From the IMG/VR virus record IMGVR_UViG_3300042553_000326, positions 1-64,000 of that record: 64,000 bases of DNA. One strand, given 5' to 3'. Below the pieces are notes generated by a model, which was not told where the DNA came from, searched no databases, and was given only the letters and a program-made list of their open reading frames with translations. The DNA comes from a virus. Numbering within the stretch: the stretch's first letter is position 1; each line of letters starts with the position of its first letter. Positions 1,747-53,954 of this stretch are shown piece after piece. The translations under genes were made by a program, and so were the position numbers.

Positions 1747-1773
1747 TTCATATAAGATACCCAAAAACCCGCA
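1747..1773 (-). promoter_or_regulatory. Putative phage-RNAP promoter, copy 1 (TGCGG-N7-GGTATCTTATATGAA)
   Basis: 15-bp core identical at 4 intergenic sites, each just upstream of a gene start. Confidence 0.8.
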
Positions 1774-1775
1774 GT

Positions 1776-2075
1776 TTAGCCTGTGGCGAATTCGTGGATT
1801 TCCTTCGTGCTTTTGAAGCCATGCCGCAAAGCCTGTTGCAACAGCCGCGCATCGTACTCGCGCTTTGCCGAGGTCTTGACAGCCTCGAAGAACTTCTTTG
1901 CCGACTTGTAGTCAGCGAAGGAACACAGCGTGCTCCCTTCTGAGAAGTTCACCCTGCCGTCGAAAGACAGGCGGTCCTCTTCGTGATACACCCTGTAAAC
2001 GCGGTCAAGATCGACAGTGAGTACTAGGTTTTCTTCCTTGAGACTGTTAAACCACTTCTTCAGCGTAGCTTTCAT
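1776..2075 (-). CDS. Hypothetical protein (99 aa)
   Basis: AGGAG RBS; tight operon packing. Confidence 0.7.
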   Translation of the reverse strand: MKATLKKWFNSLKEENLVLTVDLDRVYRVYHEEDRLSFDGRVNFSEGSTLCSFADYKSAKKFFEAVKTSAKREYDARLLQQALRHGFKSTKEIHEFATG

Positions 2076-2077
2076 CT

Positions 2078-2245
2078 TTACTCTCCTGTACAGAAATGAA
2101 GGTTACTTAGAATTTCCTTGCGCGGCTTTCCATTCAACTCGTGCGCATCTCTGATATAGCCTAGTTGAATAAGCTCATCGACTTCCCAGTCTCTGAGTAC
2201 AAGCCCTTCGCAATCGAGTACTATAAATTCGACGCCACTCCACAT
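2078..2245 (-). CDS. Small hypothetical protein (55 aa, MWSGVEFIVLDCEG...)
   Basis: Translated by hand; AAAGGAG RBS; first ORF after promoter 2273-2299. Confidence 0.55.
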   Translation of the reverse strand: MWSGVEFIVLDCEGLVLRDWEVDELIQLGYIRDAHELNGKPRKEILSNLHFCTGE

Positions 2246-2272
2246 GTGAATCTCCTTTGACGGTTGTTTCTA

Positions 2273-2299
2273 TTCATATAAGATACCTGCTTTTGCGCA
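2273..2299 (-). promoter_or_regulatory. Putative phage-RNAP promoter, copy 2 (TGCGC-N7-GGTATCTTATATGAA)
   Basis: Same core as copies 1, 3 and 4. Confidence 0.8.
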
Positions 2300-2313
2300 G
2301 TTTACCTTATATG

Positions 2314-2341
2314 AAAACCCTGCCAATCTACCTGGGCAGGA
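2314..2341 (-). terminator. Putative intrinsic terminator
   Basis: CCTGCC...GGCAGG hairpin followed by TTTT on the minus strand, after ORF 2350-2604. Confidence 0.5.
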
Positions 2342-2349
2342 TCAGGTTT

Positions 2350-2604
2350 TTAACCGACACGGGCTGAAATCAAATTACTCATCGACTCCTGGTGATCCTT
2401 GTTGGCATCGAACAACAGCTTGAATCGCTGCCCGGTCCTGGTATTCACCATGATGATGTACGCAGGATCTTCCTCACCCACATGCTTATCAAACATGGCA
2501 GTCCAACGCCCGCTGACTTGCACGCCCATGCTGTACAAGTCATGTTGGAATGGATTGCAGTCAGCAGGCAGTGGATCCATTTGAATCATTTGCGGCAACT
2601 TCAT
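2350..2604 (-). CDS. Hypothetical protein
   Basis: AAGGAG RBS before ATG 2604. Confidence 0.7.
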   Translation of the reverse strand: MKLPQMIQMDPLPADCNPFQHDLYSMGVQVSGRWTAMFDKHVGEEDPAYIIMVNTRTGQRFKLLFDANKDHQESMSNLISARVG

Positions 2605-2615
2605 GTGACTCTCCT

Positions 2616-2963
2616 TCAGCAATGGTTGTAGGTCATATGATCAGCGTACTCTACCGGTACCCACCACGCGCTAGGCGTAAGACCTCGCTCACGCAATTCA
2701 TACTGTGGGCCAGCGGTAGGTTGATTCCGAAGACGAGGCTGATCAATCAAACCGTCCTCAATCAGTCGCTTGGCAATCGTCTCGGCCATAGCGGGATACC
2801 TGCGCCAGTACACTTCTTTGTAAGCATCAAGCACACTACGAAAGTCCTCCGGTGTTGCACACATCGTTGACGTCGTAATCTTTGCAACGTCTTCGTACTG
2901 CACAGTGCCTTCTGCGATTGCCTTGACACAGTTGGACAGCGATGTTCCAATCAGTTTGCTCAC
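2616..2963 (-). CDS. Hypothetical protein (115 aa)
   Basis: AAGGAG RBS, GTG start. Confidence 0.7.
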   Translation of the reverse strand: MSKLIGTSLSNCVKAIAEGTVQYEDVAKITTSTMCATPEDFRSVLDAYKEVYWRRYPAMAETIAKRLIEDGLIDQPRLRNQPTAGPQYELRERGLTPSAWWVPVEYADHMTYNHC

Positions 2964-2981
2964 TTCTGTTCTCCTTCTAGG

Positions 2982-3176
2982 TTAGGGGTAAGTCTTGATA
3001 AACCAACCGACGTTCTTGCGCCACATAATCTTACTGCCGTCCTTCAGTAGAAACTCACCTGCGTCCTTCCTGCAAATGCGAATCATCTTATTGACGTTAC
3101 CTTCAAAACAGAAAGGTCTATCGCCCATGTTCTCGGCGATGAAACATGCGGCTGCGAAACTAATGTAGATATTCAT
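2982..3176 (-). CDS. Hypothetical protein (64 aa)
   Basis: GAGG RBS. Confidence 0.6.
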   Translation of the reverse strand: MNIYISFAAACFIAENMGDRPFCFEGNVNKMIRICRKDAGEFLLKDGSKIMWRKNVGWFIKTYP

Positions 3177-3241
3177 GTTTTCCTCACTTAATAAATTACG
3201 GAATACGCTTTCGCATACTCCGGGTTTATTAATTGAAAGGA

Positions 3242-3553
3242 CTAGCTGAGCTGCTTGATGTGCTCAACCTGCAGGACACGATTGCTGACACCATGTTTCG
3301 TCTTCGCGGTGTGAGTACGCTTGAACTCCTTCCAGGTAACAGGAGTCAGCTCGCCGAACTGTGCAGCACATTGTTTGCGGAGCGCGTCACGTGCAGTACC
3401 ACGAGGTGTAGTAACACGGCTGGACTTCTTTGCAACGGCCTTGATCATTCTGACCTTCTTACGCTTGGCATTGATCTCCCAACGCTTAGCACCCTTGTAG
3501 GCCTCATTCGCCTTGGACTTCTTGTTCCTACCTGCCTTGTCACAACCGGCCAT
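3242..3553 (-). CDS. Small highly basic (Lys/Arg-rich) protein, possibly nucleic-acid binding
   Basis: AAGGAG RBS; strongly K/R-rich composition. Confidence 0.6.
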   Translation of the reverse strand: MAGCDKAGRNKKSKANEAYKGAKRWEINAKRKKVRMIKAVAKKSSRVTTPRGTARDALRKQCAAQFGELTPVTWKEFKRTHTAKTKHGVSNRVLQVEHIKQLS

Positions 3554-4028
3554 CTTGATTTCTCCTTTTGTAAAAGATGTGATTATTCACAACTAATGCT
3601 ACATCGAAATGTTTAGCCCACTGAGGCTTCACATGTTTGGCATGAAAGAACAATGCCCCATCTGTAATATCTTCTGTTGCATTTACTGCATACTGCACGA
3701 TATGCTTTGCCTGTTGCCAAGCTTGCGTATCTAATACTCGCTTCTCTACTGCTGTCCAGCTAAACTGTGACTCCTGATAAACAACATCGCAGATATCACT
3801 TGGGAAACCTTTAGCCTTTACTCTATTCAATGTTACCATTGCCACTGCTTCCATACCGATGAAGCCCTCACCTCTAGCTTCGTGATACAGATTCTTAGCT
3901 AAACAATCTAGCTCTCTCTGTGAGTACTTCACAGTGGTGGCCTCTACTGTCCTTGTAACGACAGGTACAGAGACCATTGTAGTAGCCATTGGAAAGAATA
4001 CCAACGCTACGAAGGTTAGAAACCTCAT
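3540..4028 (-). CDS. Cell wall hydrolase, SleB/Hydrolase_2 family
   Basis: CLAKNLYHEARGE, AVAMVTLNRV, ICDVVYQ..QFSW, TDGALFFHA, NHIFY motifs; N-terminal signal/TM segment. Confidence 0.92.
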   Translation of the reverse strand: MRFLTFVALVFFPMATTMVSVPVVTRTVEATTVKYSQRELDCLAKNLYHEARGEGFIGMEAVAMVTLNRVKAKGFPSDICDVVYQESQFSWTAVEKRVLDTQAWQQAKHIVQYAVNATEDITDGALFFHAKHVKPQWAKHFDVALVVNNHIFYKRRNQDGRL

Positions 4029-4051
4029 TACAGTTCTCCTCTATATCTTCC

Positions 4052-4078
4052 TTCATATAAGATACCATATTTGCCGCA
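4052..4078 (-). promoter_or_regulatory. Putative phage-RNAP promoter, copy 3 (TGCGG-N7-GGTATCTTATATGAAG)
   Basis: Conserved motif just downstream of the lysis-operon terminator and upstream of the SleB gene. Confidence 0.8.
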
Positions 4079-4079
4079 A

Positions 4080-4111
4080 AACAATTACCCCCAGGAGGGG
4101 TCTCCTAGGGG
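4080..4111 (-). terminator. Terminator ending the late/lysis operon
   Basis: CCCCTAGGAG-ACCC-CTCCTGGGG hairpin then TAATTGTTTT; near-identical hairpin at 53079-53099. Confidence 0.7.
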
Positions 4112-4117
4112 CCAAAA

Positions 4118-5201: not shown

Positions 5202-5204
5202 TAT

Positions 5205-6158: not shown

Positions 6159-6173
6159 GACGCCTCCATTTTG

Positions 6174-6781: not shown

Positions 6782-6800
6782 TATGTACCTTTGAGTATTG

Positions 6801-6830
6801 AAAACGGTACCCCAAACTGTGAGGTACCGT
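6801..6830 (-). terminator. Intrinsic terminator after tail fibre 2
   Basis: ACGGTACC...GGTACCGT followed by TTTT. Confidence 0.65.
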
Positions 6831-6847
6831 GTCCATTAAGTTAACAG

Positions 6848-9802
6848 TTAGGCGTAGAAATTAGATGCCTTATTCTTCGTACCAACGTTGCTAGACTGGT
6901 AGTGGATATCAATGTATTCAATAAAGAAGTCTCCTGCGGTAATCGTAGGAATCGTATTTACTTTGAAAGATATCTTGAGTAGTCCATCTGGTTCGAAATT
7001 GTCAGTATCTAACTGGTATGTACCTGATGTCGTATTTGGCGTAGCTGCGGATAGCTGAATCTCATTGACAAACGTGGTTAATGCCGGATGCGATGTTATA
7101 TTAGTGACACTAATAGTTTGTGACAATAGCCTCTCAGCCTCATAAGCACCATCACGCTTGCCCCATCTATAGCGGTAATCCACAGTAGCCGATCCAGATA
7201 TTGCAGAACCGGTATGTGACCAGTGGACGTGAATATAAACATCAGTTCCGGGCACATGATCGTGTGGCCAATGGAATTTCAGATCGATAATATCATTGGC
7301 TACAAACTTCCACTCCTTGATGTTACCAGACCATGTAGTCCATACCGGTGCTCCTGCGCCGCTTTCTTTAGGCTGTATTACACCTTCTAGATCGCGCCAA
7401 GACCATGTAGGCGCGGCTGGGTCAACCTGGATACCACTACCCGATGTCTTGGGTAGAACTAAATTACCAGTGGAGACTTCTACATTCCCACCACTCTTTA
7501 TCTTAAATCTAGTGGTATTACCGTCGTTTCTTAGGTGTAATTCATTTGCCACGGTAGCATGCGACTGACCGAAGCATATAACCGCCGCACCTAACACACT
7601 GGAGCTTCCGCCGGACAAGAGTGTGTATCCATCTGTTCCACTAGAGTATGTACCAAACCCAGTAGCCATAACGATGCTGTCACCGAAGTACGCCTTCTTC
7701 GCTACACCCAATCCGCCAGAAACTACCAATGCGCCGGTTGTGGTGGAGGATGAGTCGGTGGTGGAACCAAGTGTGATGACGCCGGTTGTTTTGGCAATCT
7801 GAAGCGGTGTAGTTCCAGCGGGAACATCTCGAATAACGAACTGCTCACCGGTGTCATATCGATACCCAATCCGATACTGCTCCACGGTGCTGTTATACCA
7901 AGACATGTACGTGTTGCTGTTTGACAGTTCCGTACCGACAGTGATCCCATAACCTATAACTGCAGCCTTCGCCACCCCTAATCCACCCGCCGTCTTGAGG
8001 GATGCGGCTGTGGTGCTGGTGGCGTTGGTGGTGTCGGTGACTGCCAACGGCGATGCGTAACTGGTTAATGCTAAGGTAAAGGTAGCAATTGTTGAGGTGG
8101 AACCGTCATCCCTTCTCAACACCAACGAAGGAGAGTCTGCGGCTTGTTCAAATGCAAATCCATAAGAAGCAGAAGATAGCGCATACTTTCCGCCGCCCGT
8201 CGCAAAATATGCCGAATACGTCTTAGCGTATACACCACTGCCAGCAGCACTCAGCGTACCAACTACAGCAGCTCCTGTAGTCGATAAGGATAGCGTCTTT
8301 ATTCCACCAGCGTACAAATCCATCGTATTTGCGGCGGATTCTACTAGATAAGTGTCACCTACTGCAGTAACACCATCCAGATACAACTTAGCAGTAGATC
8401 CTATGGCAAGATTTCCGCCAGATGTTATCCTAAGACGTTCCGTATCTGCACCAAGATTAGAGCTGCCAGTTCGCAAGGTGAATTTGAAACCAGTATCTTG
8501 ATTGTTAACAGTTGCGTTCTCACGGAATGCTTTAATAGTGCCCGTACCCGCGTACGCTGATCCAGCAGAGGACCATGGTACGAATGAAATACCGATCGAG
8601 GAGCCGGAATTGATAGTTGTACTTGCAGGATGCTGCAATGATAGCGCACAGTGCCACGATTGGCCAGAGTCATCGCCTGACAATATTCTAGTCGCGACTG
8701 CACCAGTAGTAACAGTGAATGTATTAGTACCGCCTGCATAAAAATCCATCGTATTTGCGGCGGATTCTACTAGATAAGTATCACCACCAACCCCAGAAGC
8801 GCCGTCAAGGTAATGTTTCTTAGTGGCTGAAGTCACCATATCACCTGCGGTCGTGATGGTGAAGTTTTCGTTGAGGGTAGCCGCAGTCCCTACTGCAATA
8901 AGCGAAGCGTTAGCCTGATAGAACCTCAGAGCATTGTCCATCACCAGAGCGCCGCGTGGATGCGATGCCGCCGCAGAGGTCGAAAGGAACGTACTTCCAG
9001 TAGTGGTAGAACTACGTACCCCGTACCCGAGCATGGTGGCCCCAGACGAGTACATGGCACCGAAAGTGTTCAAGTAATCTGTGGTGCCGTATCGTAACTG
9101 CAACCCAACACCGCCAGAAGTTGACACTACGTCGCTAGCTGTAACGACACCGGTTACGGTAAGCCCCGTGGATCTAACCTGCAATGTCTTAACCCAGGAG
9201 CCACCGTATGCCCAACCGTCCATACCCTCACCGCCAGCTGGCAGTTGCCACATAGCGGTGTTTACACCAACGGACGGACCGACTCCAATATAGGGACCAG
9301 CCGCAACTGAATCAGAGCCTGCTCTATTTGCTGACAGGCCAACAGTGGAGTATAACGTACTAGTACTGGTCAGTGCGCCAGTGACTGCCGCACCTGTACT
9401 ATTCACTGTCAGTATGGCTGACCCATTAACTCTCAGGTAATGTGACTGGCCTGTGTTAGTGTCGTAGTACAACCCAGAGCCGGTATATCCGAATATCGAG
9501 GAGTGCACCGCGACTGCCGACGAGTAGAACTGTATCTTCTGGTACACTGCTGAGCCTGCGCTGCGGAGATATATAGTGCCATCTCCATTAGACTCACCAT
9601 ACACATCTAGCGTACCAGAGATTCCAGTGTTTATCGAGTTGACACTGACACCTAATCTGCCACCAGCATATAGCGACAGATTATTAGCACTGGATTCAAC
9701 TATATAGGTATCACCTGTACCTGCCACACCGTCGAAATACAGCTTAGACAAAGCCGCCAGTGAAGCAGCATTCTGCACTACTCTTAAAGGCGACTTAGCC
9801 AT
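6848..9802 (-). CDS. Tail fibre protein 2 (984 aa)
   Basis: G/T/S/A-rich repeats shared with fibre 1; distinct C-terminal globular domain. Confidence 0.8.
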   Translation of the reverse strand: MAKSPLRVVQNAASLAALSKLYFDGVAGTGDTYIVESSANNLSLYAGGRLGVSVNSINTGISGTLDVYGESNGDGTIYLRSAGSAVYQKIQFYSSAVAVHSSIFGYTGSGLYYDTNTGQSHYLRVNGSAILTVNSTGAAVTGALTSTSTLYSTVGLSANRAGSDSVAAGPYIGVGPSVGVNTAMWQLPAGGEGMDGWAYGGSWVKTLQVRSTGLTVTGVVTASDVVSTSGGVGLQLRYGTTDYLNTFGAMYSSGATMLGYGVRSSTTTGSTFLSTSAAASHPRGALVMDNALRFYQANASLIAVGTAATLNENFTITTAGDMVTSATKKHYLDGASGVGGDTYLVESAANTMDFYAGGTNTFTVTTGAVATRILSGDDSGQSWHCALSLQHPASTTINSGSSIGISFVPWSSAGSAYAGTGTIKAFRENATVNNQDTGFKFTLRTGSSNLGADTERLRITSGGNLAIGSTAKLYLDGVTAVGDTYLVESAANTMDLYAGGIKTLSLSTTGAAVVGTLSAAGSGVYAKTYSAYFATGGGKYALSSASYGFAFEQAADSPSLVLRRDDGSTSTIATFTLALTSYASPLAVTDTTNATSTTAASLKTAGGLGVAKAAVIGYGITVGTELSNSNTYMSWYNSTVEQYRIGYRYDTGEQFVIRDVPAGTTPLQIAKTTGVITLGSTTDSSSTTTGALVVSGGLGVAKKAYFGDSIVMATGFGTYSSGTDGYTLLSGGSSSVLGAAVICFGQSHATVANELHLRNDGNTTRFKIKSGGNVEVSTGNLVLPKTSGSGIQVDPAAPTWSWRDLEGVIQPKESGAGAPVWTTWSGNIKEWKFVANDIIDLKFHWPHDHVPGTDVYIHVHWSHTGSAISGSATVDYRYRWGKRDGAYEAERLLSQTISVTNITSHPALTTFVNEIQLSAATPNTTSGTYQLDTDNFEPDGLLKISFKVNTIPTITAGDFFIEYIDIHYQSSNVGTKNKASNFYA
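8316..8779. repeat. Exact 38-bp direct repeat (8316-8353 and 8742-8779) inside tail fibre 2
   Basis: AAATCCATCGTATTTGCGGCGGATTCTACTAGATAAGT occurs twice and encodes TYLVESAANTMD. Confidence 0.9.
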
Positions 9803-16796: not shown

Positions 16797-16860
16797 AATG
16801 CTTAAGTCCTAGGTTAATACATAGGTTAATGATTAAGGAGGTATATACATGATACTGCTG

Positions 16861-16916
16861 ACATCTGTAGCGATTAATACAGGGGAGCGGTAAAGTTCAA
16901 TAATTTAACAGTTTCG
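16861..16916. promoter_or_regulatory. Conserved intergenic element, copy A (late promoter or origin candidate)
   Basis: TCTGTAGCGATTAATACAGGGGAGCGGTAA...AATTTAACAGTTTCG repeated at 45671-45725. Confidence 0.6.
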
Positions 16917-17175
16917 TACAAGATAGAATTATCGCAGTTACTATAGTATCATCGACTATAGATTTATCTGCGATTTCTCTATCGCCCGGAGTGTGTTGCG
17001 CCACATGGGTTTCGGCGGTTTTGCACGCTACGGGGCCAGGTTGGGCCATAGCGAGGCGCAACGGCGCGGGATGGCATGGGTATCGGCGACCTCCCAATCG
17101 CCCCGCCTGCACCAAACGTCGAGGCCACTCGTCCGGTCGGCGCAAACAGGTCGATCGAGAATAGCCCAAACAGCT

Positions 17176-36784: not shown

Positions 36785-39700
36785 TTATCCGATCCCGTAC
36801 CAGTACAAATTCTTATCGAACTTATGCTCAATAGGTTTCAGAATGTCTTCTCTTGTGAGGATATCCTCGATTTGCAATACTTTACCACCAACAACAGAAC
36901 GACCAGGCACTGGAATAAGTCCTGTGTCGATAGCCTCATTGAGATATTGGTCATACAGATCCTTAGGCAAACCTCTTGCACGCATCTCATTCAGTGTGTG
37001 CAGGATAACGTTAGACTCTAAAGATTCAGCATATATCTCTCTAAGTGCATCCCTTGCCTTCAGCATGTCAGCAGCGTTCGACAAGAACGCATCATGAACA
37101 GTTGAAGTATCTATGTTATTCCTTCTTCCCCATAGATGATATTTCTTTACTAATACAGCATCGTTACTGTGGTTAGTGTTAACCCCGAAAGCTGTCTTAG
37201 CTTTGTTTAAATCAGCGATATCCTGCATAGTATCAGACTTATTTCTAATCTCTTGCCACCATGTAGGATCGGTCTTCTGTTTAACCTGAACGATATTCGT
37301 TATCCACTCACCATCCTTACTTTTGTACAATAGTTTTTCCTCGAAAGACTGTGTGAACTTTTGTTCAACAACCTTTCCATCGAAATTAACTACAGGTACA
37401 TTAGTCCAGTTCTTAGGTAATTTATTTGGATGCAAAACATCGAATCCACCAAACAGATTCTCTTCTATATCGCCTAACTTAAACTTTACCTTTCCAAGGT
37501 TCTTACCTGTTACACGATCTATAGGATCTTTAACTCCGAATACAATATCAGAGAATGTACTATCAGGTTTGAACCAAGGTATTCTTTTTAGAAGTTTCTC
37601 GCTAAGAGATTCAGATGCTTTAGTACCTAGTATTTCGGCTGCTAGTGGTGACAACTTATCACCAGAGCTGTAATTACCAAATACCATCTGTCTCGCGATA
37701 ACTGCAAAGTCTAATGAGGATTGCGATGGCTTAGCACTGGTTAGGAAATCAGCTGCTAGTCTACCAAAGAACTTAGTGAAGCCTTTTAGAATAGGGACTT
37801 CTTCAGATAAGTTTTCACTCATTATATTTGCTATTAATTTAAAGTCATCAGGAGTGACGACCTTATTGTAATTTCTAGACATCTTCTCTACGAGATCATA
37901 CGTCTTAGGTTCAAGGAACCAAAGTTCCTCAAGAATGTCATCCCCAGGATCGATACCTTTATTGAAGATGTCCTTCACGTCTTGTCGTAAACTCTTAAGT
38001 TCAGCAGCTGTATCAGGATCAAACCTTTCGAATCTAGCTGCACGAGCACTTATCTGCTCTAATACAGTGTCTCTATCCGAAGCCTTAACCACTAGGGTCG
38101 AGTCTTGTTTATCTAATGCTTTAGCCAACTTAGTTTCTACGTTGATAATACCAGTACGTTCACCTGCTCCGTAGAAGGTCACCATGTTTTGAGCTTTAGC
38201 AGCCTTACGTAGATCTTTTTCCGTTAAGCCTAACTTTTGATTAAGCTTAATGAATCTTGGGTCATCGAAGGTTCTTGCTGCAATCTCATCGTACAAACGT
38301 TTCTTCTGATTGGTTGGTACTACATTAGATAACTCAGCCAACTGCTTATTTTTAGTTGTGAGTGCAATGATCTGAGCGCCAGACGACGATGCATCCTGCT
38401 CAAGAGCTATTGCTATCTTGTAATCACTTAGCTTAGCTAAAGACAGCTTATCATATTTCCCATCAAGGAAATTATGTATTTTAGCTGCTTCAAGTGACAG
38501 TCTAAGAGCCTTACCGAGGTCTTCACCATCTATCTCTTGGACAAACTTAGAATCCAGCACAGCTCTAATGTCACCTGGCTTACCACGTAGAATGTGATTA
38601 CCAATCTTAACCATCTCAGGGCGTAATTCTGATGCTATCAGCTGTCTACCTGTGACGGATAATGAGTTATGTCTACCTTCGAACTTATCAGAAAGTCCAC
38701 CTAGAAATCCACCTATCTGATCATTTAGGTTCCTCCATCCAGCTTCACTGAATGGCTTTGCTTCCTTACTATTTAAGAAAGGTCTAAATGATTCACCAGA
38801 TTGAGGCCCAATAAAGCCTCTTTCGTAGATACGTGCACGGTGATCTAGGAATGGTATATTACTGAACGAAGCATTCTTCTTTCTGAGCCAATCCATTACT
38901 TTGAATCGCTCATAGGCATCGCCACGCTCTACCATGTATTCGCGGTAGGTATTCAACTCATTGTAATGTTTAGCGCGACCTTTATCGTCTTCAAACAACA
39001 TCAGCTTATTGATGAAATCATAGAACTCATTATCGATACGATATTCAGTCCTACCTGCCCAATTAAGAGCTTGTGTCATCGACTTATCAATTAATGCCTC
39101 TGGAAAGTCGGCAAAGGAGTCTGTAGACGTTATAGGTATGCGGGTATCGTAATAACCTAGAACACCTTCGTCTATGAAATACGTTTTGTAACCCTCTCTA
39201 ATAATTAAACGGTTTCGCGCATCGATTGGTGTGACACGGATACCTACATCTACTTTTCTAGTTAACTTAGAGTAGTCTTGGATGCGTTTATCGACAATAC
39301 GAAGATGCACAGAGAATGTATCATAAGCAGGACCAAAGTATTTATTACTATTCTTACTCTTCATCCGCCTCTTCTGAACACCAAAGGTTTCTAACTCGTA
39401 GAATCCCTTTCCTTTTGCATCGTCTAACAGTTTAACACCAAGCTTCCACCACTCTTGTCTACTGCCTCTGTAGTTAGCTAGATTATAGAGATCACGTCCG
39501 ATTGCTACAGCGAGCTGATCCCTATCAGGACCATCTGCCAGAGCTAATCTGTTTGCAAACTTAAGATAGAATTGCTTTTTCTGAGGTTCTTCTAGGCGAA
39601 CTAATAGTTTTAAAGGAATTTTCCTATCCAACACGTTACGCAATTCTCTAGCGATCTTCGGTAAGGTTTTATCTTCCCATTTATTCTTTCGTTTTATATT

Positions 39701-41419
39701 AGCTAGGAACTCATCATGAAGCTCGTCTAGTTGGCTAGGTCCAAGAACTGGATCTAGAAAGTTATCTTGCTTCAACCGCTGAAGTAACCCTGTATTGCGC
39801 CTCAGCTGTGTCTCCATGAAGTCCGACACGTTCATCACATCAAACTTCATCTGTCCATTGAGGACTGCCTTAAGATTCTGCCAAGGCTCTTTATTGTTTC
39901 TAAACCTGGTAAATGTAATTCTAAGATTCTCTGTGACAACAGCTCTCTCATTAGAACTCATTTCATCTTCAAGCTTATCTACAAACTTTATGATGAAGTC
40001 TTTATCAGCTTGCTTAAGGTCTGCACTCTCATTAACTAACCTATAACTGTTACTCAATACTGAAGGATTGGGCTGAAATACACGGCTATCCTCGTATCGT
40101 CCCGTTAAGGGGTTGAATAATAACTGATCTTCATTAGGTGGTGTAGATAGAATTCTAGTCTTACTAGCTTTCTTAGTGCCTAGCAGATTACCTCTATAGT
40201 TCGTAAGTGATAACGTACCTTCTAAGTCCCTAGACTGCAGCAGGTAATACTCTTTAAGTGCCTTCTGCAATTCAGTAGATGCAAGTATCTCATCAGGCCT
40301 TGATGCACCTAACTTAAGTACATCTAATCTTTCCTTTGCAGCAGCAAACTTCATCGTATCACCAGGTAAGCCTATACCTGAGGTAGTCATTCTGCGAAGC
40401 TCAGCAATACCTACTTCTTTACCAGAAGGATTAGTGAATTTATCCACAGTAAGCTGTCCACTTCTAAACATATTCAGTCTAGTGGTATCACCAAGGTGTC
40501 TAAGCTGGACTTCAGTAGGTTGACGTTGTAACCACTCACTATAGGACTCTTTTAGTGGTGATTGTCCGTCGTAGTAAGCGATTTGCTTAGCTGTGAGACC
40601 CTCTAGATTACGTTTTCGAATTTGGGCAATATTCTCGAGTGAACCCAAGTCGCTATAGCTTTTGACAATAGGTACAGTGGTACTCCTGCAATGAAAATGA
40701 GCAGGAGGCAAATGAGATACATCACTAATAGGATACACAGTGCCATCGCGATGACGGCAAATAGGGGTAGTTCTAGAATCGAGAACAGCAACGTACTGCC
40801 AACCTCTAAGGACTTTCTCATTAGCTTTATAGACCTCATGATCTGTTTGTGAACGAACCGAGGTCATAGCAGTTCTTACTAAGCCTAATGACTGATTCAT
40901 TGAGATATCAAGGACGTTACCTTTACGTATGGACAACGCAATAGCCTTTTCATCTAGCCCTTGTGCAATACCATTACGTATTACAGCTTCTAATCGTTTA
41001 CGCTCGGAGAGGCTTACTGTATTCCAGCCTTCGAGCAGTGTAACATCATTGTAGATAGGACGCTTTAACACAATGTCTTCAGCTATACGATATTGTGGCT
41101 TAGATGTGCGCCATATCTTACCAACAGCATTATCCAACTGTTGATAAGTGTAGGATATTTGGCTGGATACTAAGTCAAGTAAAGATCTAGAGCTTACATT
41201 ATATGCTTGCCCATAGGTCTTTCTTAATAGCACATCTATCTCTTCCATCATCTTAGGTGACATAGACGCCTTATTACGCAAGATGATATCATCTATCTTC
41301 GTCTTATGGCCATTGACAATGGTGTATATCTTACCAGATACACGCTCCTCGTACAACCTCATCATTGCAGCTCTGTCTACAATATTATCGTATAGAGCTG
41401 TATTCACATTTTGTTTCAT
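36785..41419 (-). CDS. MuF (SPP1 gp7-like) minor head protein fused to a T7-family single-subunit DNA-directed RNA polymerase (1544 aa)
   Basis: N-term: YVAVLDSRTTPICRHRDG...PPAHFHCRST (MuF). C-term: DHRARIY, EQDASSSGAQ (motif A Asp), RKAAKAQNMVTFYG (motif B Lys/Tyr), NHSNDA, VHDAF (motif C Asp). Confidence 0.92.
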   Translation of the reverse strand: MKQNVNTALYDNIVDRAAMMRLYEERVSGKIYTIVNGHKTKIDDIILRNKASMSPKMMEEIDVLLRKTYGQAYNVSSRSLLDLVSSQISYTYQQLDNAVGKIWRTSKPQYRIAEDIVLKRPIYNDVTLLEGWNTVSLSERKRLEAVIRNGIAQGLDEKAIALSIRKGNVLDISMNQSLGLVRTAMTSVRSQTDHEVYKANEKVLRGWQYVAVLDSRTTPICRHRDGTVYPISDVSHLPPAHFHCRSTTVPIVKSYSDLGSLENIAQIRKRNLEGLTAKQIAYYDGQSPLKESYSEWLQRQPTEVQLRHLGDTTRLNMFRSGQLTVDKFTNPSGKEVGIAELRRMTTSGIGLPGDTMKFAAAKERLDVLKLGASRPDEILASTELQKALKEYYLLQSRDLEGTLSLTNYRGNLLGTKKASKTRILSTPPNEDQLLFNPLTGRYEDSRVFQPNPSVLSNSYRLVNESADLKQADKDFIIKFVDKLEDEMSSNERAVVTENLRITFTRFRNNKEPWQNLKAVLNGQMKFDVMNVSDFMETQLRRNTGLLQRLKQDNFLDPVLGPSQLDELHDEFLANIKRKNKWEDKTLPKIARELRNVLDRKIPLKLLVRLEEPQKKQFYLKFANRLALADGPDRDQLAVAIGRDLYNLANYRGSRQEWWKLGVKLLDDAKGKGFYELETFGVQKRRMKSKNSNKYFGPAYDTFSVHLRIVDKRIQDYSKLTRKVDVGIRVTPIDARNRLIIREGYKTYFIDEGVLGYYDTRIPITSTDSFADFPEALIDKSMTQALNWAGRTEYRIDNEFYDFINKLMLFEDDKGRAKHYNELNTYREYMVERGDAYERFKVMDWLRKKNASFSNIPFLDHRARIYERGFIGPQSGESFRPFLNSKEAKPFSEAGWRNLNDQIGGFLGGLSDKFEGRHNSLSVTGRQLIASELRPEMVKIGNHILRGKPGDIRAVLDSKFVQEIDGEDLGKALRLSLEAAKIHNFLDGKYDKLSLAKLSDYKIAIALEQDASSSGAQIIALTTKNKQLAELSNVVPTNQKKRLYDEIAARTFDDPRFIKLNQKLGLTEKDLRKAAKAQNMVTFYGAGERTGIINVETKLAKALDKQDSTLVVKASDRDTVLEQISARAARFERFDPDTAAELKSLRQDVKDIFNKGIDPGDDILEELWFLEPKTYDLVEKMSRNYNKVVTPDDFKLIANIMSENLSEEVPILKGFTKFFGRLAADFLTSAKPSQSSLDFAVIARQMVFGNYSSGDKLSPLAAEILGTKASESLSEKLLKRIPWFKPDSTFSDIVFGVKDPIDRVTGKNLGKVKFKLGDIEENLFGGFDVLHPNKLPKNWTNVPVVNFDGKVVEQKFTQSFEEKLLYKSKDGEWITNIVQVKQKTDPTWWQEIRNKSDTMQDIADLNKAKTAFGVNTNHSNDAVLVKKYHLWGRRNNIDTSTVHDAFLSNAADMLKARDALREIYAESLESNVILHTLNEMRARGLPKDLYDQYLNEAIDTGLIPVPGRSVVGGKVLQIEDILTREDILKPIEHKFDKNLYWYGIG

Positions 41420-45239: not shown

Positions 45240-45800
45240 ATCCCGTAAATAAACTTCGAAAACTAATGCGGTATCAAGTACTTACACCGAAACCGATAAG
45301 AAAATCGCTCGCGCTTTCTATATAGCGCCTTCATTAAGATAACACTTTAAGCATTCGTATTTGCTAATGCTGTGTTCAATGTAGTACTCTGCAATTTAAA
45401 CCTACCTATTTACCTTCTCATTGATTTCTCATTTTCAATATAGGGTTACTATACAAGGTACTTATACATAACTCCCCTTGAGTTATCTAATGCTGTAGGT
45501 TAAAGCATTAGTTATTCTATATTGTTAAATACATAGGTTATTAATACATATTATTATTAATAAAGAAGTATAATAAAGAAGGGGCTTACATTGGTAGACG
45601 AATGCATTAAGCTACATCTGTATTATACCTACATATACCTTCTTCTTAATAGATACATACATACATACAGACGTCTGTAGCGATTAATACAGGGGGAGCG
45701 GTAATGGGTTAATTTAACAGTTTCGCGATAGAAAATAATTGTGTAAATCTTGAACTTTGGAAAATTAAACCTTTAAGTAATCTTGTGGCATTTCGAATCA
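45240..45800. other. AT-rich non-coding region between accessory and late modules (origin, pac or late-control candidate)
   Basis: No ORF of 60 aa or more on the coding strand; AT-rich with TACATA-type short repeats. Confidence 0.45.
45671..45725. promoter_or_regulatory. Conserved intergenic element, copy B
   Basis: Near-identical to 16861-16916. Confidence 0.6.
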
Positions 45801-45872
45801 AAAAAAAAAAAAAAAAAAAAAAAGTTGGAGAGACCCTTACCCAGTACCCGAAGGCACCAGATAAGGATCTCT
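45800..45872 (-). terminator. Long UUCG-capped hairpin followed by a 24-nt T tract
   Basis: AGAGATCCTTATCTGGTGCC-TTCG-GGTACTGGGTAAGGGTCTCT, then T24 (45800-45823). Confidence 0.8.
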
Positions 45873-46309
45873 CACAGGTGTATTACCTTGTCGATTGAAT
45901 CTATCAGAGTGTACAACCTCTGAGTTTCCTCTGTGAAGATACCAAGTCGTTCTTTTCCTTCTTCACCTAGTCTTGTGTAATCCAGGACGAGTCTCTCGTA
46001 GCGCAGAAGATCGAACTTGACACTTGACCTACATGATTCTACCAGGTTTCGTAACTTTGTATTCTCTACGATAAGCTCAGAATTGCGAATACATTGCCTG
46101 CCAAATTCACCTGCCAGTTGCTTGTTCTCGGCTTCGAGGGCGGCGAGTTGCTCCTTCAGTTCATTTCTCAGCCTCTTATACTCGGAGTGATCGAATGTAG
46201 AGGCTTCCTTCAGCCGATTCACCTGCATACGAAGTGACTTAATCTCGTACTTCCAGGAGCCATCTGCTAAGGCTTCAAACTCTTGTTCAGTCATATTGTG
46301 GTCCTCCAT
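45872..46309 (-). CDS. Hypothetical coiled-coil protein
   Basis: AAGGAG RBS before ATG 46309. Confidence 0.65.
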   Translation of the reverse strand: MEDHNMTEQEFEALADGSWKYEIKSLRMQVNRLKEASTFDHSEYKRLRNELKEQLAALEAENKQLAGEFGRQCIRNSELIVENTKLRNLVESCRSSVKFDLLRYERLVLDYTRLGEEGKERLGIFTEETQRLYTLIDSIDKVIHL

Positions 46310-48604: not shown

Positions 48605-48623
48605 CTGTAGTCCCCTCTTGCTC

Positions 48624-48672
48624 AAAAAAAAAAAAAAAAAAAATTATTTAACAAATAACGCCCCGGAGGGCG
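48624..48672 (-). terminator. GC hairpin followed by a 20-nt T tract
   Basis: CGCCC-TCCG-GGGCG, then TTATTTGTTAAATAA, then T20 (48624-48643). Confidence 0.65.
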
Positions 48673-48953
48673 CTATGAAACAGACAACCCAAATTACACT
48701 CAAGGGTGCACAGCCACATGTTCTGATCTCAATCTGCGTTTCACTTAGTTAGCGCATCATGCGTCTCACATTACAGGCCTCTCGAATGTAATCCAGGTTG
48801 CCGACTCTAGTATTTCCTGTAGCCCAGGACCATACTGAAATCAACAGCTTGCACTATCATACCTGCTGTCAGAGGTAAGTAGTACCGTACAGTTCTGACG
48901 CTTTGACATGCGTCCCCTCCTCCATGCAAGACTGTAGGCTCGCTGGCAGTAAA

Positions 48954-49478: not shown

Positions 49479-49555
49479 TGGTCTCTCGAGATGGAATCGA
49501 ACCATCGACCAACCGCTTAGAAGGCGGTTACTCTTATCCGCTGAGCTATCGAGAG
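49479..49555 (-). tRNA. tRNA-Arg (UCU)
   Basis: CTCTCGA acceptor, ACCGC-CTTCTAA-GCGGT anticodon arm, GTTCGATTC T-loop, encoded CCA. Confidence 0.93.
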
Positions 49556-50013
49556 TATACTGTATATTTATCGATAAGATTGTTGTCTACTGCAGACTGC
49601 ATTTCTTCTGACAACCCGTCTAACTGGGCCTTTCTAGAAAATTTACCACTACAACTCCTAGAACAGAATACACCGTATTTCTTAACGGCTGTTTGAAATG
49701 CCTGTCTGTAGCTACGTTCGAATACGCATTTGCACTGTGGGCACTCTAATAAACAAGTCAAGACACCCTGCTCATAACCATGCATTCTCATATGCTCGAT
49801 GCGATCCATAACCTGAAGATTATCTACACTATTATCCCGCTTGTCATGATTTTTATGATGCACAATCTCTTCGGACGTAAGTAATCTGCCTAATTTATTT
49901 TCCATAATGATTCTGTGGTGAAACACATAGCCTAACACAGTAGCATTTGGGTGGTCCGGCACTTTAGCGTAAATATAGTCGCCTTTTGAGACAATACCTT
50001 GTATTATCCACAT
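49546..50013 (-). CDS. HNH homing endonuclease with C-terminal Zn finger
   Basis: YVFHHRIIME..LGR.L...EIVHHKN.DKRDN...NL; CPQC...FCSRSC. Confidence 0.9.
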   Translation of the reverse strand: MWIIQGIVSKGDYIYAKVPDHPNATVLGYVFHHRIIMENKLGRLLTSEEIVHHKNHDKRDNSVDNLQVMDRIEHMRMHGYEQGVLTCLLECPQCKCVFERSYRQAFQTAVKKYGVFCSRSCSGKFSRKAQLDGLSEEMQSAVDNNLIDKYTVYSR

Positions 50014-50045
50014 AACGATCTCTTTCTGTAAATGGTTAGCGTAAG

Positions 50046-50204
50046 TTAATATTCCTGATAATCTTCAGGGTAAGGCTGTGGTGGACCGCTGTAGAATGGA
50101 TTCTTGTACCACACATCTCTGTCGGACAGTATCCAGGCTAGATCAGGACGATCCCTACCAACATTTAATGCGTATTCCCTGTCCGCTTGCTCTTCAAAGG
50201 ACAT
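50046..50204 (-). CDS. Small hypothetical protein (52 aa, ...AWILSDRDVWYKNPFYSGPP...)
   Basis: Translated by hand; fills the gap in the operon. Confidence 0.6.
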   Translation of the reverse strand: MSFEEQADREYALNVGRDRPDLAWILSDRDVWYKNPFYSGPPQPYPEDYQEY

Positions 50205-50211
50205 ATTTAAT

Positions 50212-50583
50212 CTACTTATAGTAGATAAAGACGCCGTTTCTGGATTTTTGAGAGGTACCTACAACACCTGCCCCGAATACGTCCTTACAGGCGTTCTTAA
50301 CCGCAGTGCCGAAGGCTCTAAGTGGAGTATCTGGTGGGGTGAAGAAGAACATTGACTCACCTGGCGCTAATTTAGCCACCTTGATATTCAACTTCTCCTT
50401 TAAGAAATTATACTGTTCAGCTTTAGGAGTGGGTGCTTTCCTATTCTTAGGGGACGCTCTTTTACTAATTAATTTCAGCGGCTCCTCAACTATTTTTATC
50501 TTGCGCTCAATATCTACCGCGAGCTCCTTCTTCTTAAACTGTCTGTCCATGTACCTTATCTGACTCTCAGTCCTTGCATCCAT
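50212..50583 (-). CDS. Hypothetical basic protein, possibly DNA-binding
   Basis: Coupled ORF; C-terminus resembles the C-terminus of 47621-48604. Confidence 0.65.
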   Translation of the reverse strand: MDARTESQIRYMDRQFKKKELAVDIERKIKIVEEPLKLISKRASPKNRKAPTPKAEQYNFLKEKLNIKVAKLAPGESMFFFTPPDTPLRAFGTAVKNACKDVFGAGVVGTSQKSRNGVFIYYK

Positions 50584-50775
50584 TTATTGACCTTGCTCCG
50601 TCTCGATCATAGCATCGTGAATGTACTTATGTTGCGCATTCAATGCTGAACGAATAGAGTCGTTCTCGTTCTCACTAATGAAGATTTCGCCTTTTCGATC
50701 GATCATTGCAATTTCCCAACCAAGCTTACGAATTACTGCAGCTGCTTCTGTTGCGGTTTCAAATTCTTTATCCAT
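50584..50775 (-). CDS. Hypothetical protein (63 aa)
   Basis: GGAG RBS. Confidence 0.6.
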   Translation of the reverse strand: MDKEFETATEAAAVIRKLGWEIAMIDRKGEIFISENENDSIRSALNAQHKYIHDAMIETEQGQ

Positions 50776-50805
50776 TTTTATTTCTCCGTTTGTAATATGT
50801 GGGGG

Positions 50806-50877
50806 TTCCCTATGTCTGGATCAAACAGACGACCTATCGCTTACAAGGCGATTGCTCTGTCACTGAGCTAATAGGGA
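50806..50877 (-). tRNA. tRNA-Thr (UGU), atypical elbow, no encoded CCA
   Basis: TCCCTAT/ATAGGGA acceptor, ATCGC-CTTGTAA-GCGAT anticodon arm, T arm GTCTG-TTTGATC-CAGAC. Confidence 0.85.
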
Positions 50878-50959
50878 ATAGATCGGTTAACCTTAAAGCC
50901 GATACCATGCACCGAAAGGTCTGGCATCCGCGATACGTAGGTGTATCACTCCTAAACGG

Positions 50960-51033
50960 TGGCCCCTGTTGGACTCGAACCAACAACCAAAGGATTATGA
51001 GTCCTCTGCTCTCACCAATTGAGCTAAAGGGCC
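50960..51033 (-). tRNA. tRNA with CAU anticodon, Ile2 (lysidine)-type body, no encoded CCA
   Basis: GGCCCTT/AGGGGCC acceptor and GA-CTCATAA-TC arm resemble bacterial tRNA-Ile2 rather than Met. Confidence 0.85.
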
Positions 51034-51040
51034 GTACTAC

Positions 51041-51259
51041 TTAATCGCGCTGCATGAAGTCGCCAAGAGACATCGACACACCGGCGTAGTTACTGCCACG
51101 ACCCCAGGGAGCATATTTATTACGCTCCAGAGACCTCCAGTCGACACACGAGATGCGAACCTTTCCATGGTACTGCGGAAAGCCCTCTTTGGCATTGGGA
51201 TGCGGGACACAAGCCAGATTGCGCTTCGTCATCTTAACAACCATGTTCGGATTAAACAT
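51041..51259 (-). CDS. Hypothetical protein (72 aa)
   Basis: AGGAG RBS. Confidence 0.6.
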   Translation of the reverse strand: MFNPNMVVKMTKRNLACVPHPNAKEGFPQYHGKVRISCVDWRSLERNKYAPWGRGSNYAGVSMSLGDFMQRD

Positions 51260-51455
51260 TTACAGCTCCTTCTGATTTAACGTAACCTCTGATATAGAAC
51301 TTAAGACGTTCTTCATCTTTCTTAAGCTCCGCTTCTGTAGCTCTGAAATCAGGATTCAGTATTGCAAACCCTTTATCCCACAGCTCAGGTGTCATACACA
51401 TTGTTCTGAATATGAAACCCTTATGCACAACAGTGACGCAACGAATACTCGCCAT
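51252..51455 (-). CDS. Hypothetical protein (67 aa)
   Basis: AGGAG RBS. Confidence 0.6.
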   Translation of the reverse strand: MASIRCVTVVHKGFIFRTMCMTPELWDKGFAILNPDFRATEAELKKDEERLKFYIRGYVKSEGAVNV

Positions 51456-51711
51456 TTCTGAGTCTCCTGTTAGCCTTCAATTTGCTGAGTTCATGCGTGT
51501 AGACCTCATTCTCAAATATTGCCAAGAGGTCTGCCTTACTACTAAGACCATGCTTCACATTCATAATCCAGGTCTTACCATGAACATGCCTGAAGATGTC
51601 TTTCTCCCACGTTAGTACGTAGTTACCCTCAGCGGTAATACCTAGAATACGATACTCGGTTCCGATGCGATGCTTCTTTTGCGTTGTAAATTTCTTGGTA
51701 TTGATGTCCAC
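51421..51711 (-). CDS. Hypothetical protein (96 aa)
   Basis: GAGG RBS, GTG start. Confidence 0.55.
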   Translation of the reverse strand: MDINTKKFTTQKKHRIGTEYRILGITAEGNYVLTWEKDIFRHVHGKTWIMNVKHGLSSKADLLAIFENEVYTHELSKLKANRRLRNGEYSLRHCCA

Positions 51712-51738
51712 GGTAATATCCTCATGCGTTAAACTACG

Positions 51739-51942
51739 TTATTTATTAAACCACACAACATGTGTTGCCCAGGAGGGCGTAGCCCACCAGCAACTACTTT
51801 TAGCGTCGTAGAACTCAGAATTGGCAAAGTATCCGACACCGTCGTCTTCCACAAACTCGCCTTCATCTACTGCTTCGCTGAACTCTTCCACAGTGAAGAC
51901 ATCACAATGCTCTTCAGAGGGAATTACACATGGTTTTTCCAT
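51739..51942 (-). CDS. Hypothetical acidic protein (67 aa)
   Basis: AAGGAG RBS; F..DDG.GYFA...WATHVVWFNK. Confidence 0.7.
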   Translation of the reverse strand: MEKPCVIPSEEHCDVFTVEEFSEAVDEGEFVEDDGVGYFANSEFYDAKSSCWWATPSWATHVVWFNK

Positions 51943-51955
51943 AATACTCCTTTAG

Positions 51956-52040
51956 TGGTCCGAGGAACGGGAATCGAACCCGTATAGCTATCGCTGGCAG
52001 ATTTTAAGTCTGCTGTGTCTACCAATTTCACCACCCTCGG
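51956..52040 (-). tRNA. tRNA-Leu (UAA)
   Basis: GCAGA-CTTAAAA-TCTGC anticodon arm, long variable arm, GGTTCGATTCC, encoded CCA. Confidence 0.93.
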
Positions 52041-52047
52041 TAATACA

Positions 52048-52194
52048 TTAGCGACAGATAGCTTGATAGTACTTCGTATAACCTTGGACATTGCATACAG
52101 CTATGCCACCAGCTAATACGTAGCCTTCTTCAATCCACTGTCTGACAATAGCTTCAAGCTCTATTACCGAACCAGCTGTAAGCACTCTATACAT
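52048..52194 (-). CDS. Small protein, DUF1737-like (48 aa)
   Basis: Translated by hand: MYRVLT....ELE..V...IEEGYVLAGGIAV.....YYQAI. Confidence 0.6.
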   Translation of the reverse strand: MYRVLTAGSVIELEAIVRQWIEEGYVLAGGIAVCNVQGYTKYYQAICR

Positions 52195-52417
52195 GATACT
52201 GATTCTCCAGCTTACGAAGACGGATACGCCAGGTATTATGACGTATCTTTTTATCTTCTAAAAGTTCGCGTATCTCATGCAACTGCTTTTCTAGCTGATT
52301 GCAATCTTGTTCAAGCTGCACTACGATAAATTCCATCATATCATGCGTATAGGTTTCTAGTGTAGCACCGTTTTCGGCAGACATTATTTCCCTTTCAACT
52401 GTAATTAATATTGACAT
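52187..52417 (-). CDS. Hypothetical coiled-coil protein
   Basis: Operon packing. Confidence 0.6.
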   Translation of the reverse strand: MSILITVEREIMSAENGATLETYTHDMMEFIVVQLEQDCNQLEKQLHEIRELLEDKKIRHNTWRIRLRKLENQYHV

Positions 52418-52718
52418 TGTTAGCTATTGCCTGTCTGAACAACTCTTTCAAATCGCGAATCCTATCTCGAACATACTCAAAGTTTCTACCACAGTAGACC
52501 ACATTACCATCTGCTATAGTAGGCTCAATGAAGTTCTGCATGAGATACCAATTATCAAGCTTCATAAGCATAGTATGAATCTGATCCTGGTTGAACTCAC
52601 CGCACTCCTCGTGAGGCATGTCAAGTATATCCATCAGATCAATAAAGTTCTTATTGGACATATTAACAAAATCCTCAATATCGCAATCAGCACACGACAT
52701 CGTAACACTCATTTTCAT
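52395..52718 (-). CDS. Hypothetical protein
   Basis: GAGGAG RBS before ATG 52718. Confidence 0.65.
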   Translation of the reverse strand: MKMSVTMSCADCDIEDFVNMSNKNFIDLMDILDMPHEECGEFNQDQIHTMLMKLDNWYLMQNFIEPTIADGNVVYCGRNFEYVRDRIRDLKELFRQAIANNVNINYS

Positions 52719-52788
52719 CTTCTCCTCTTGTAAAAGCTTACTAGAAGACACTCTTTTGGAATGCCCTCTATAAACTCAGTCTTTTGGA

Positions 52789-53004
52789 CTAGGCGTGTTT
52801 ATCGCAGATATTGTAAGACTTCACATACTTACCCTTACAGGTGCAGTATAGCAAATCACCTACCTTTTGTTTCACCTTCTGGCTGCAAGTCCCGCAGCTA
52901 GCTCCAGCTGCTTTCTTATCGGAGATCTTAACGTTATCCACCTTATTGAAAAATGGATGAATAACAGCACGTCCGAAATGTGGTACGGTCAACTGTACTT
53001 GCAT
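52789..53004 (-). CDS. Small Cys-rich (Zn-binding) protein
   Basis: AAGGAG RBS; CGTC...C.C...C..H. Confidence 0.6.
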   Translation of the reverse strand: MQVQLTVPHFGRAVIHPFFNKVDNVKISDKKAAGASCGTCSQKVKQKVGDLLYCTCKGKYVKSYNICDKHA

Positions 53005-53067
53005 GAACCAGCTCCTTTTAGCACGACGATTGAATTACCAGTGTTGTGCCAGACACTGACAACCTGC

Positions 53068-53099
53068 AAAAATAAACCCCAGGAGTATTCTCCTAGGGC
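53068..53099 (-). terminator. Intrinsic terminator
   Basis: CCCTAGGAG-AATA-CTCCTGGGG followed by TTTATTTTT; stem nearly identical to 4088-4111. Confidence 0.75.
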
Positions 53100-53301
53100 T
53101 CATTTTCTAGATTCTTTAAGATGTAGCATTCAGAGTGCGCATTCCGAATGAAACCTTTAGGCCTTCTAGTGACCTGTTAGCGTAGAGACGCTGAATTCAT
53201 GAACGGCTTCTTTAGAGTCCACACCGAAAACGGACTTAACTGAGCGACCAGTGGCTAGATCACGAGAAAGGGGAACATGATCCAGCGTCGCTTCAGTTGT
53301 A

Positions 53302-53877
53302 TTACGCGGCCTTCTTCTCAGCCTCTTCGCGAGCCTTCTTTGCGGCCTGAAGCTTAGCACGAGCTTCAGCAAGACGATTCAGGGTATCTTGAGTAACTTC
53401 ACGCTTCTCAATACCAGCTTCGTAGCCAGTCTTGATAGCCTCACCGTTAGTCATAACCCACTTGGCGACATCAGCGTTGCCATCAGCAAGCGCCGTCAGA
53501 GCAGCTTGAGCAGCAGCCAGAGCTTCGTCGTCCTTCAGACGCTTAACAGCAGGCCACTTGAAGCACTCAACCAGCTGATTAGCCTGCTCGATCACGAAAG
53601 CAGCCTTCTTATCTTCCTTCATCGTCTCAACAACGTGATCCATAGCCTTTTGCAGCTTGTTACGCTCCGTCTTCAGAACACGTCGCGACTTACCAGCGTC
53701 CAGCGCGGCAAGAATTTCATCTTCCTTCTCAACCAACCAGTTTACCAGTTCCTCGTTAGCGCCCTTGATAGCTTTGAACGCCTCCTTAATCTTCGGGAGA
53801 CGAATGAAGTCTTGAGCTTCTTGCTTAGTTGCAAAGAACTTACCATCAACGATGAAACCAGACTGAATATTGCTCAT
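53302..53877 (-). CDS. Hypothetical protein (191 aa) with high-expression codon bias
   Basis: AAGGA RBS; first gene after promoter copy 4; Ala/Lys/Glu-rich helical. Confidence 0.8.
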   Translation of the reverse strand: MSNIQSGFIVDGKFFATKQEAQDFIRLPKIKEAFKAIKGANEELVNWLVEKEDEILAALDAGKSRRVLKTERNKLQKAMDHVVETMKEDKKAAFVIEQANQLVECFKWPAVKRLKDDEALAAAQAALTALADGNADVAKWVMTNGEAIKTGYEAGIEKREVTQDTLNRLAEARAKLQAAKKAREEAEKKAA

Positions 53878-53927
53878 TTAATTTATTTCCTTTTTAATAA
53901 TGAAAATACGAAGTCTCTATTCTGAGC

Positions 53928-53954
53928 TTCATATAAGATACCCTTAAATCCGCA
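53928..53954 (-). promoter_or_regulatory. Putative phage-RNAP promoter, copy 4 (TGCGG-N7-GGTATCTTATATGAAG)
   Basis: Same core as copies 1-3, about 50 kb away. Confidence 0.8.

Follow-up and report, generated by a model that had tools for sequence, protein, structure and literature searches.

Phage-encoded single-subunit RNA polymerases of the T7 type, as found in T7, T3, SP6 and K11, read promoters that are short, nearly invariant, strand-specific intergenic blocks consisting of an A/T-rich upstream part, a specificity part, an AT-rich melting box and a purine start. Coliphage N4 arranges such enzymes as a relay, in which transcription passes from the virion RNA polymerase gp50 to RNAPII (gp15/gp16) and then to the host polymerase (PMC13434306). 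Here we analysed the first 64 kb (64,000 nucleotides (nt); hereafter the window) of the 75,242-bp IMG/VR virus record IMGVR_UViG_3300042553_000326 (G000; completeness rated 100%), from a long-tailed phage that carries four copies of a bipartite promoter-like motif, which we call class A. We consider it very probable that class A is a promoter for a polymerase encoded by the phage itself and lean towards an enzyme fused to a MuF domain and predicted to travel in the capsid as its reader.

Class A shares with the T7-type promoters the succession of parts listed above, and its proposed reader is likewise a phage-encoded, single-subunit enzyme of T7-like fold. It departs from them in its low copy number (only 2–5 per 65–100 kb genome) and in its likely reader, an enzyme joined to a capsid protein and so diverged that its sequence matches no solved structure. 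A first-pass annotation of this DNA had likened the motif to the SP6 promoter, a comparison that holds for the architecture but not for the sequence, where only ~8 of 16 bases are shared. With N4 the phage shares a virion-carried polymerase (here a predicted one), a small number of early promoters, a second T7-like polymerase among the early genes, and a separate class of promoters for genes expressed later. The parts differ: N4 early promoters are single-stranded DNA hairpins (5–7 bp stem, 3-nt loop), whereas class A has no hairpin; the N4 enzyme measures 3,500 amino acids (aa) and belongs to a short-tailed phage, compared to ~1,544 aa for the MuF-fused enzyme of this long-tailed phage; and N4 late operons use host-enzyme sites, where this phage has a phage-type motif, class B. 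The roseophages DSS3_VP1 and DSS3_PM1 (Naomviridae; PMC8323127) share the genome plan of this phage, with a MuF-polymerase in the head operon (31% identical) and a free RNA polymerase downstream of the lysis genes. The paper on these two phages mentions neither the fusion polymerase nor such promoters, and our literature search found no description of MuF-fused polymerases, of class A or class B promoters, or of the relay.

Class A in this phage and its relatives

The pattern TGCG(G/C)-N7-GGTATCTTATATGAA matched exactly four times in the window, always on the minus strand and at the positions that the first-pass annotation had given, compared to 0.00 full-pattern matches expected from 100 shuffles. 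Scanning the whole 75,242-bp genome with up to two mismatches allowed yielded no further copy. The four sites and the features next to them are:

1747-1773, minus strand: class A site 1 (CTGCGG-N7-GGTATCTTATATGAA); an 80-aa open reading frame (ORF) begins with ATG 32 nt downstream; 36 bits with the position weight matrix
2273-2299, minus strand: class A site 2, 27 nt before a small ORF
2313-2340: hairpin (6 bp) with GTTTTC, preceding class A site 2
3540-4028, minus strand: endolysin gene (Hydrolase_2; N-terminal hydrophobic segment of signal-peptide type), the first gene after class A site 3
4052-4078, minus strand: class A site 3; the endolysin gene, first of the lysis cassette, begins 23 nt downstream
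4087-4112, minus strand: intrinsic-terminator-like hairpin (11 pairs) with a T-run, closing the tail-fibre operon immediately upstream of class A site 3
53928-53954, minus strand: class A site 4; p191, a conserved gene of 191 aa, begins 50 nt downstream

Much of what had been claimed for these copies was borne out. The 15-nt core is invariant and the N7 spacer is constant in length and variable in sequence, with the refinement that the spacer is not random but A/T-rich at −19 to −15. All four copies are intergenic, with a ribosome-binding site (RBS) and start codon 23–50 nt downstream of the GAA end (20–50 bp had been proposed); copies 2 and 3 do follow terminator hairpins, and none of the four lies in a head or tail operon. 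The motif extends over ~27 bp and ends in an AT-rich box and then G. Taking this G as +1, the predicted start, the layout would comprise a GCG box at −23 to −21, the A/T-rich segment at −19 to −15, a variable triplet at −12 to −10 and an invariant ATCTTATAT at −9 to −1.

For comparison we assembled 23 related genomes with GC contents of 33–66%, excluding one near-duplicate; a megablast search of the phage collection found no close DNA relative of this phage. Across the set, the 10-nt core ATCTTATATG occurred 74 times on the coding strand and 3 times on the opposite strand, with ~3.7 expected per strand, and 70 of the 74 coding-strand sites had CG exactly at −22/−21. Whereas T7-type promoters span −17 to +6, class A thus reaches −24, with its separate GCG box one helical turn upstream at a spacing fixed in 70/74 sites. 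The core was unchanged in all 23 genomes despite their range of GC content, and in the 70 boxed sites ATCTTATAT followed by G was invariant, the next base being A or G. No boxed site lay within a long ORF, an RBS and start codon followed 15–60 nt downstream in 51/67 sites, and a position matrix placed true sites above 23 bits and background below 17 bits. Scanning IMG/VR for the motif returned at least 119 stretches; genes of this phage family, most often that for a second polymerase, RNAP2, were present in 53 of the 80 matching stretches listed, and all 18 records reached solely via the motif encoded the MuF-polymerase. Class A is a family-wide motif.

Class A might be no promoter at all but an operator, a 5′-leader signal for RNA processing or translation, or a replication or packaging site, since it would lie within transcribed leaders if upstream operons are read through, and a two-part site of fixed spacing suits a dimeric DNA-binding protein. 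We hold these functions to be highly improbable. The motif is asymmetric and strand-specific (74 versus 3), without the dyad symmetry of an operator. It is often preceded by a terminator, and at its 3′ end a melting box leads into a purine, as in T7-type promoters; with 2–5 dispersed copies it is a poor candidate for the sole pac site or origin of a genome. Folded as single-stranded DNA, the four sites score no better than shuffled sequence (z −1.3 to +0.6) and have no conserved structure or shared stem, on which ground we also reject an N4-type hairpin promoter.

Class A could also be a cluster of host RNA polymerase promoters, like T7 A1–A3 upstream of gene 1, perhaps with a phage factor on the conserved block. 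The T7 logic is matched in that the promoter cluster stands just upstream of a phage polymerase gene; in addition, an nTGCGs-N16-TATGAA reading is possible for two of the four copies, and the class A variant of DSS3_VP1 contains TATAAT. We nevertheless judge host recognition very unlikely. In a sigma-70 reading the invariant bases would occupy the spacer, TTATAT offers T in place of the essential −10 A, and the final base of a TATGAN reading is T in only about one-third of class A sites. A sigma-70 consensus scan called none of the four sites, in agreement with the earlier claim that their spacing is unlike sigma-70, and sigma-70-like sites were no commoner than in shuffles. No sigma-factor domain is encoded in this genome, and class A is identical in phages of 33% and 66% GC, whose hosts are probably very different. 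Because the core is invariant across this GC range, the MuF-polymerase co-occurs with it, no sigma domain is encoded and sigma-70 does not fit, we regard recognition as phage-encoded and class A as, in all likelihood, the promoter of a phage polymerase.

Two RNA polymerases and the probable reader of class A

The phage, with a portal, a large terminase and a 2,720-aa tape measure protein, has a genome of 43% GC with essentially all genes on the minus strand. Its first polymerase is:

36785-41419, minus strand: fusion of a MuF domain (aa 143-248) to an RNA polymerase of T7/mitochondrial type (~aa 440 to the C terminus); 1544 aa, catalytic motifs complete

This gene sits between the portal and capsid genes in the head operon. 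The motifs DHRARIY, DASSSGAQ, K...YG and HD were invariant in nine genomes. A structural model of residues 400–1544 (pLDDT 74, pTM 0.73) matched T7 and mitochondrial RNA polymerases over its full length (E 1e-15 to 1e-19), whereas the N4 polymerase was absent from the top 50 structural matches; phmmer of the polymerase part against solved structures found no match, so the T7-type link comes from Pfam and the fold search. From its motifs and the model, the enzyme looks active. Its nearest named relatives are in EBPR siphovirus 1 (57% identical) and the roseophages DSS3_VP1 and DSS3_PM1, and at least 66 IMG/VR loci carry the fusion. The second polymerase, RNAP2, is a compact T7-like enzyme encoded on the minus strand at G000 72023-75006, just outside the window. 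Its gene is interrupted in motif B by a group I intron (Rfam RF00028, 86 bits) bearing an HNH endonuclease ORF, and exon 2 alone matches T7 RNA polymerase with E=5e-13.

The genome has, in addition, a second conserved promoter-like motif, class B. Its form in most relatives is A(A/C)CCCGTTAAATTA, with ACCC or ATGA usually coming next; this phage has AACTGTTAAATTA. Using a matrix built from regular-expression matches in the genomes, we found 3–9 class B sites per relative, nearly all on the coding strand, placed before replication, head and tail operons. The sites in the window, together with a hairpin that bears on RNAP2 expression, are:

32-102, minus strand: hairpin with a UUCG-type loop (75-102) and T30 (32-61, coding strand), between the class A cluster and the RNAP2 gene
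6837-6852, minus strand: weaker class B-like site (CCTAACTGTTAACTTA) after the tail-fibre genes; 12.7 bits
16901-16916, minus strand: class B site before the tail operon, then a CCGCTCCCC...TATTAAT element (16860-16885)
45710-45725, minus strand: class B site before the terminase/head operon, with a CCGCTCCCCC element after it
53997-54012, minus strand: class B site (CGAAACTGTTGAATTA), ~80 nt upstream of class A site 4

The first-pass annotation had proposed that class A is read by the injected RNA polymerase. Its behaviour as a promoter of a single-subunit phage polymerase stands, but the annotation had assumed a single enzyme. Because there are two polymerases and two motif classes, we infer the reader of class A from gene order and from the co-variation of class B with RNAP2, and on these grounds we think it somewhat more probable that the capsid-borne MuF-polymerase reads class A than that it does not.

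The gene order is the same in every genome that holds RNAP2: terminase, MuF-polymerase, class B, tape measure, class B, class A (1–5 sites), RNAP2, class B, DNA polymerase, class B, in some cases class A, p191 and class B. The 1–5 class A sites stand immediately upstream of RNAP2 with no class B site between, and the first of them often precedes the endolysin gene; the one apparent case of an intervening class B site, in G016, is due to a terminal duplication in its record. Most genomes have a class B site after RNAP2. RNAP2 is thus always positioned after class A and ahead of the first class B site of the replication module. An enzyme that owes its own first expression to a promoter cannot be that promoter's sole reader, and class A therefore calls for a polymerase that is already there when infection begins.

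Class B varies by lineage together with the specificity loop of RNAP2, which we located by alignment to T7 residues 739–770, while class A and the MuF-polymerase stay constant. In G014, class B has GCT for GTT and the loop tip of RNAP2 is SHGC for STGY; in G008, four sites placed where class B usually stands read CCGTCAGTTTA, and the RNAP2 loop is altered. The RNAP2 of G017 is only 31–37% identical to that of this phage, with an unalignable loop, yet its MuF-polymerase is still 46–53% identical and its class A sites are perfect; a search for a class B equivalent in G017 detected none, although a GTAGTTAGTAACC repeat was seen. Class B distance correlated with RNAP2 loop distance (Mantel r=0.43, p=0.015) and not with MuF-polymerase loop distance (r=0.15, p=0.19). 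Because shared ancestry inflates Mantel-type tests, we take this co-variation as moderate support for the assignment.

The opposite assignment would have RNAP2 read class A and the injected MuF-polymerase read class B or another signal, so that class A upstream of RNAP2 forms a self-amplifying loop that also serves late lysis genes. RNAP2 is the more T7-like enzyme, as its exon 2 match indicates, class A ends in the classic T7-like AT-rich box and then G, the typically late lysis cassette is headed by class A, and a terminator separates the class A cluster from RNAP2. We consider this assignment unlikely, because the initial expression of RNAP2 would then depend on some other promoter, and the stretch from the T-run to the RNAP2 gene has no conserved one. 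Moreover, the class B variants track the RNAP2 loop in the three genomes above, class A is unchanged in G017 despite the divergence of RNAP2, and an injected enzyme reading class B would have the head and tail operons open from the first minute.

Several points weigh against assigning class A to the MuF-polymerase. First, presence and absence cannot separate the two polymerases, since both are present in every complete relative, and the co-variation is confounded by shared ancestry. Second, most genomes have a hairpin and a T13–30 run between the class A cluster and RNAP2, so that expression of RNAP2 from class A needs read-through; the T-run precedes a small membrane-protein gene that stands before RNAP2, and comparison of the relatives found no conserved motif between the T-run and the RNAP2 gene. 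Third, the lysis cassette stands behind class A in this phage and in seven relatives (G001, G009, G010, G011, G014 and G022 among them), which is odd for a purely early promoter. Fourth, packaging and ejection of the fusion are predicted solely on the grounds that it contains a MuF domain and that its gene lies in the head operon. Lastly, the sequencing runs searched included no RNA run with this phage, which was found in lake-water DNA metagenomes only.

Among named phages, DSS3_VP1 shows the same layout with a class A variant, GGCATCTATAATGA or CGCATCTATAATGA, that occurs three times; two of the three sites precede the genes for the endolysin and the free polymerase, and ~15 class-B-like GCGTTAAAGA sites are present too. 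The core of the variant differs from class A at three positions, its upstream box is GTGAG instead of YGCGS, and transcription would be expected to start at the G of ATCTATAATG. EBPR siphovirus 1 has class-B-like sites only, in a partial record that lacks the region where class A would sit. We also tried Pelagibacter phage Kolga, which has an RNAP2-like gene and a MuF protein without polymerase, as a natural test; its genome of 30% GC gave no clear repeated motif, and two AATTAAC(C/T)TATAGGA sites, being a hint only, were not used as evidence.

Neighbouring genes, terminators and introns

p191 heads the small-gene cluster behind class A site 4; Pfam, PHROG and Atlas gave no lead to its function. 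Four tRNA genes lie at 49482-52040 among these small genes, and the tandem layout of class B then class A upstream of p191 recurs in relatives. In the cluster behind class A site 1, a 317-nt stretch at 1155-1471 is free of ORFs and has no Rfam match. The late-operon class B sites are followed after 8–10 nt by a CCGCTCCCC(C)TGTATTAAT element (45670-45725 and 16860-16916), which recurs after class B in many relatives. ORF-free GC-rich stretches of ~170–220 nt stand just upstream of class B sites at 53955-54195 and 16920-17146; G008 has a similar one at the same place, and no Rfam family matched.

GC-rich hairpins, often with a UUCG-type loop and followed 5–13 nt on by a T-run, were seen at 32-102 (T30), 45790-45873 (T24) and 48613-48680 (T20), the second of which precedes the terminase class B site. 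Relatives have the same feature before RNAP2 and before the terminase class B site. The record of this phage ends within the T30 tract at both ends, as do the records of two relatives, suggesting that a circular assembly was broken at the homopolymer.

In seven relatives (G008, G010, G011, G014, G016, G024 and G031), insertions of 0.4–1 kb split genes for the MuF-polymerase, RNAP2, terminase, primase or ribonucleotide reductase (RNR). These split matches in core genes suggest that introns or inteins are frequent in this phage family. Beside the DNA polymerase gene, G000 70045-70686 (minus strand) encodes a MazZ-like protein with an N-terminal dATP/dGTP diphosphohydrolase domain (PF18909); no PurZ-like gene was found in this genome, and the MazZ-like gene is therefore no pointer to a 2-aminoadenine genome. 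In related Naomviridae, dU replaces dT in the genome.

A proposed two-polymerase relay

With the MuF-polymerase as reader of class A, transcription could proceed as follows. Late in one infection, the fusion would be incorporated into the capsid; in the next it would enter the cell together with the DNA, read the class A sites and transcribe small early genes. By running through the hairpin and T-run, which would act as an attenuator, it would also transcribe the RNAP2 gene. In turn, RNAP2 would recognise class B, whose more numerous sites stand ahead of the replication, head and tail operons. Such a two-polymerase, two-promoter relay resembles N4 in logic and T7 in parts.

The label "early" that the first-pass annotation gave to these promoters was too narrow, because copy 3 heads the endolysin gene and lysis cassette, as class A does in seven relatives, and copy 4 heads the cluster of tRNAs and small genes. 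Speculatively, MuF-polymerase that accumulates late may also drive the lysis genes from class A site 3, or these genes may be transcribed from the start and held in check some other way. A bolder form of the scheme, which we put forward tentatively and consider doubtful, would make the MuF-polymerase both the first and the last transcription enzyme of the infection: a few ejected molecules would fire class A to express host-takeover genes and RNAP2, and newly made fusion would fire class A, site 3 included, again late, coupling the timing of lysis to head-protein synthesis, with class A/MuF-polymerase and class B/RNAP2 as mutually orthogonal pairs.

The phages concerned are a widespread group of long-tailed lake, wastewater and marine phages, comprising the IMG/VR stretches that carry the motif and the cultured Naomviridae, of which DSS3_VP1 on Ruegeria pomeroyi is a cultured system for direct testing. 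If the assignment is correct, the family would supply two new compact polymerase–promoter pairs as orthogonal expression tools. For the biology of these phages, it would mean that a self-contained relay, with two polymerases and two defined promoter classes, leaves them dependent on the host enzyme little or not at all, and the N4 strategy would gain a second example, independent of the first and made from different parts.

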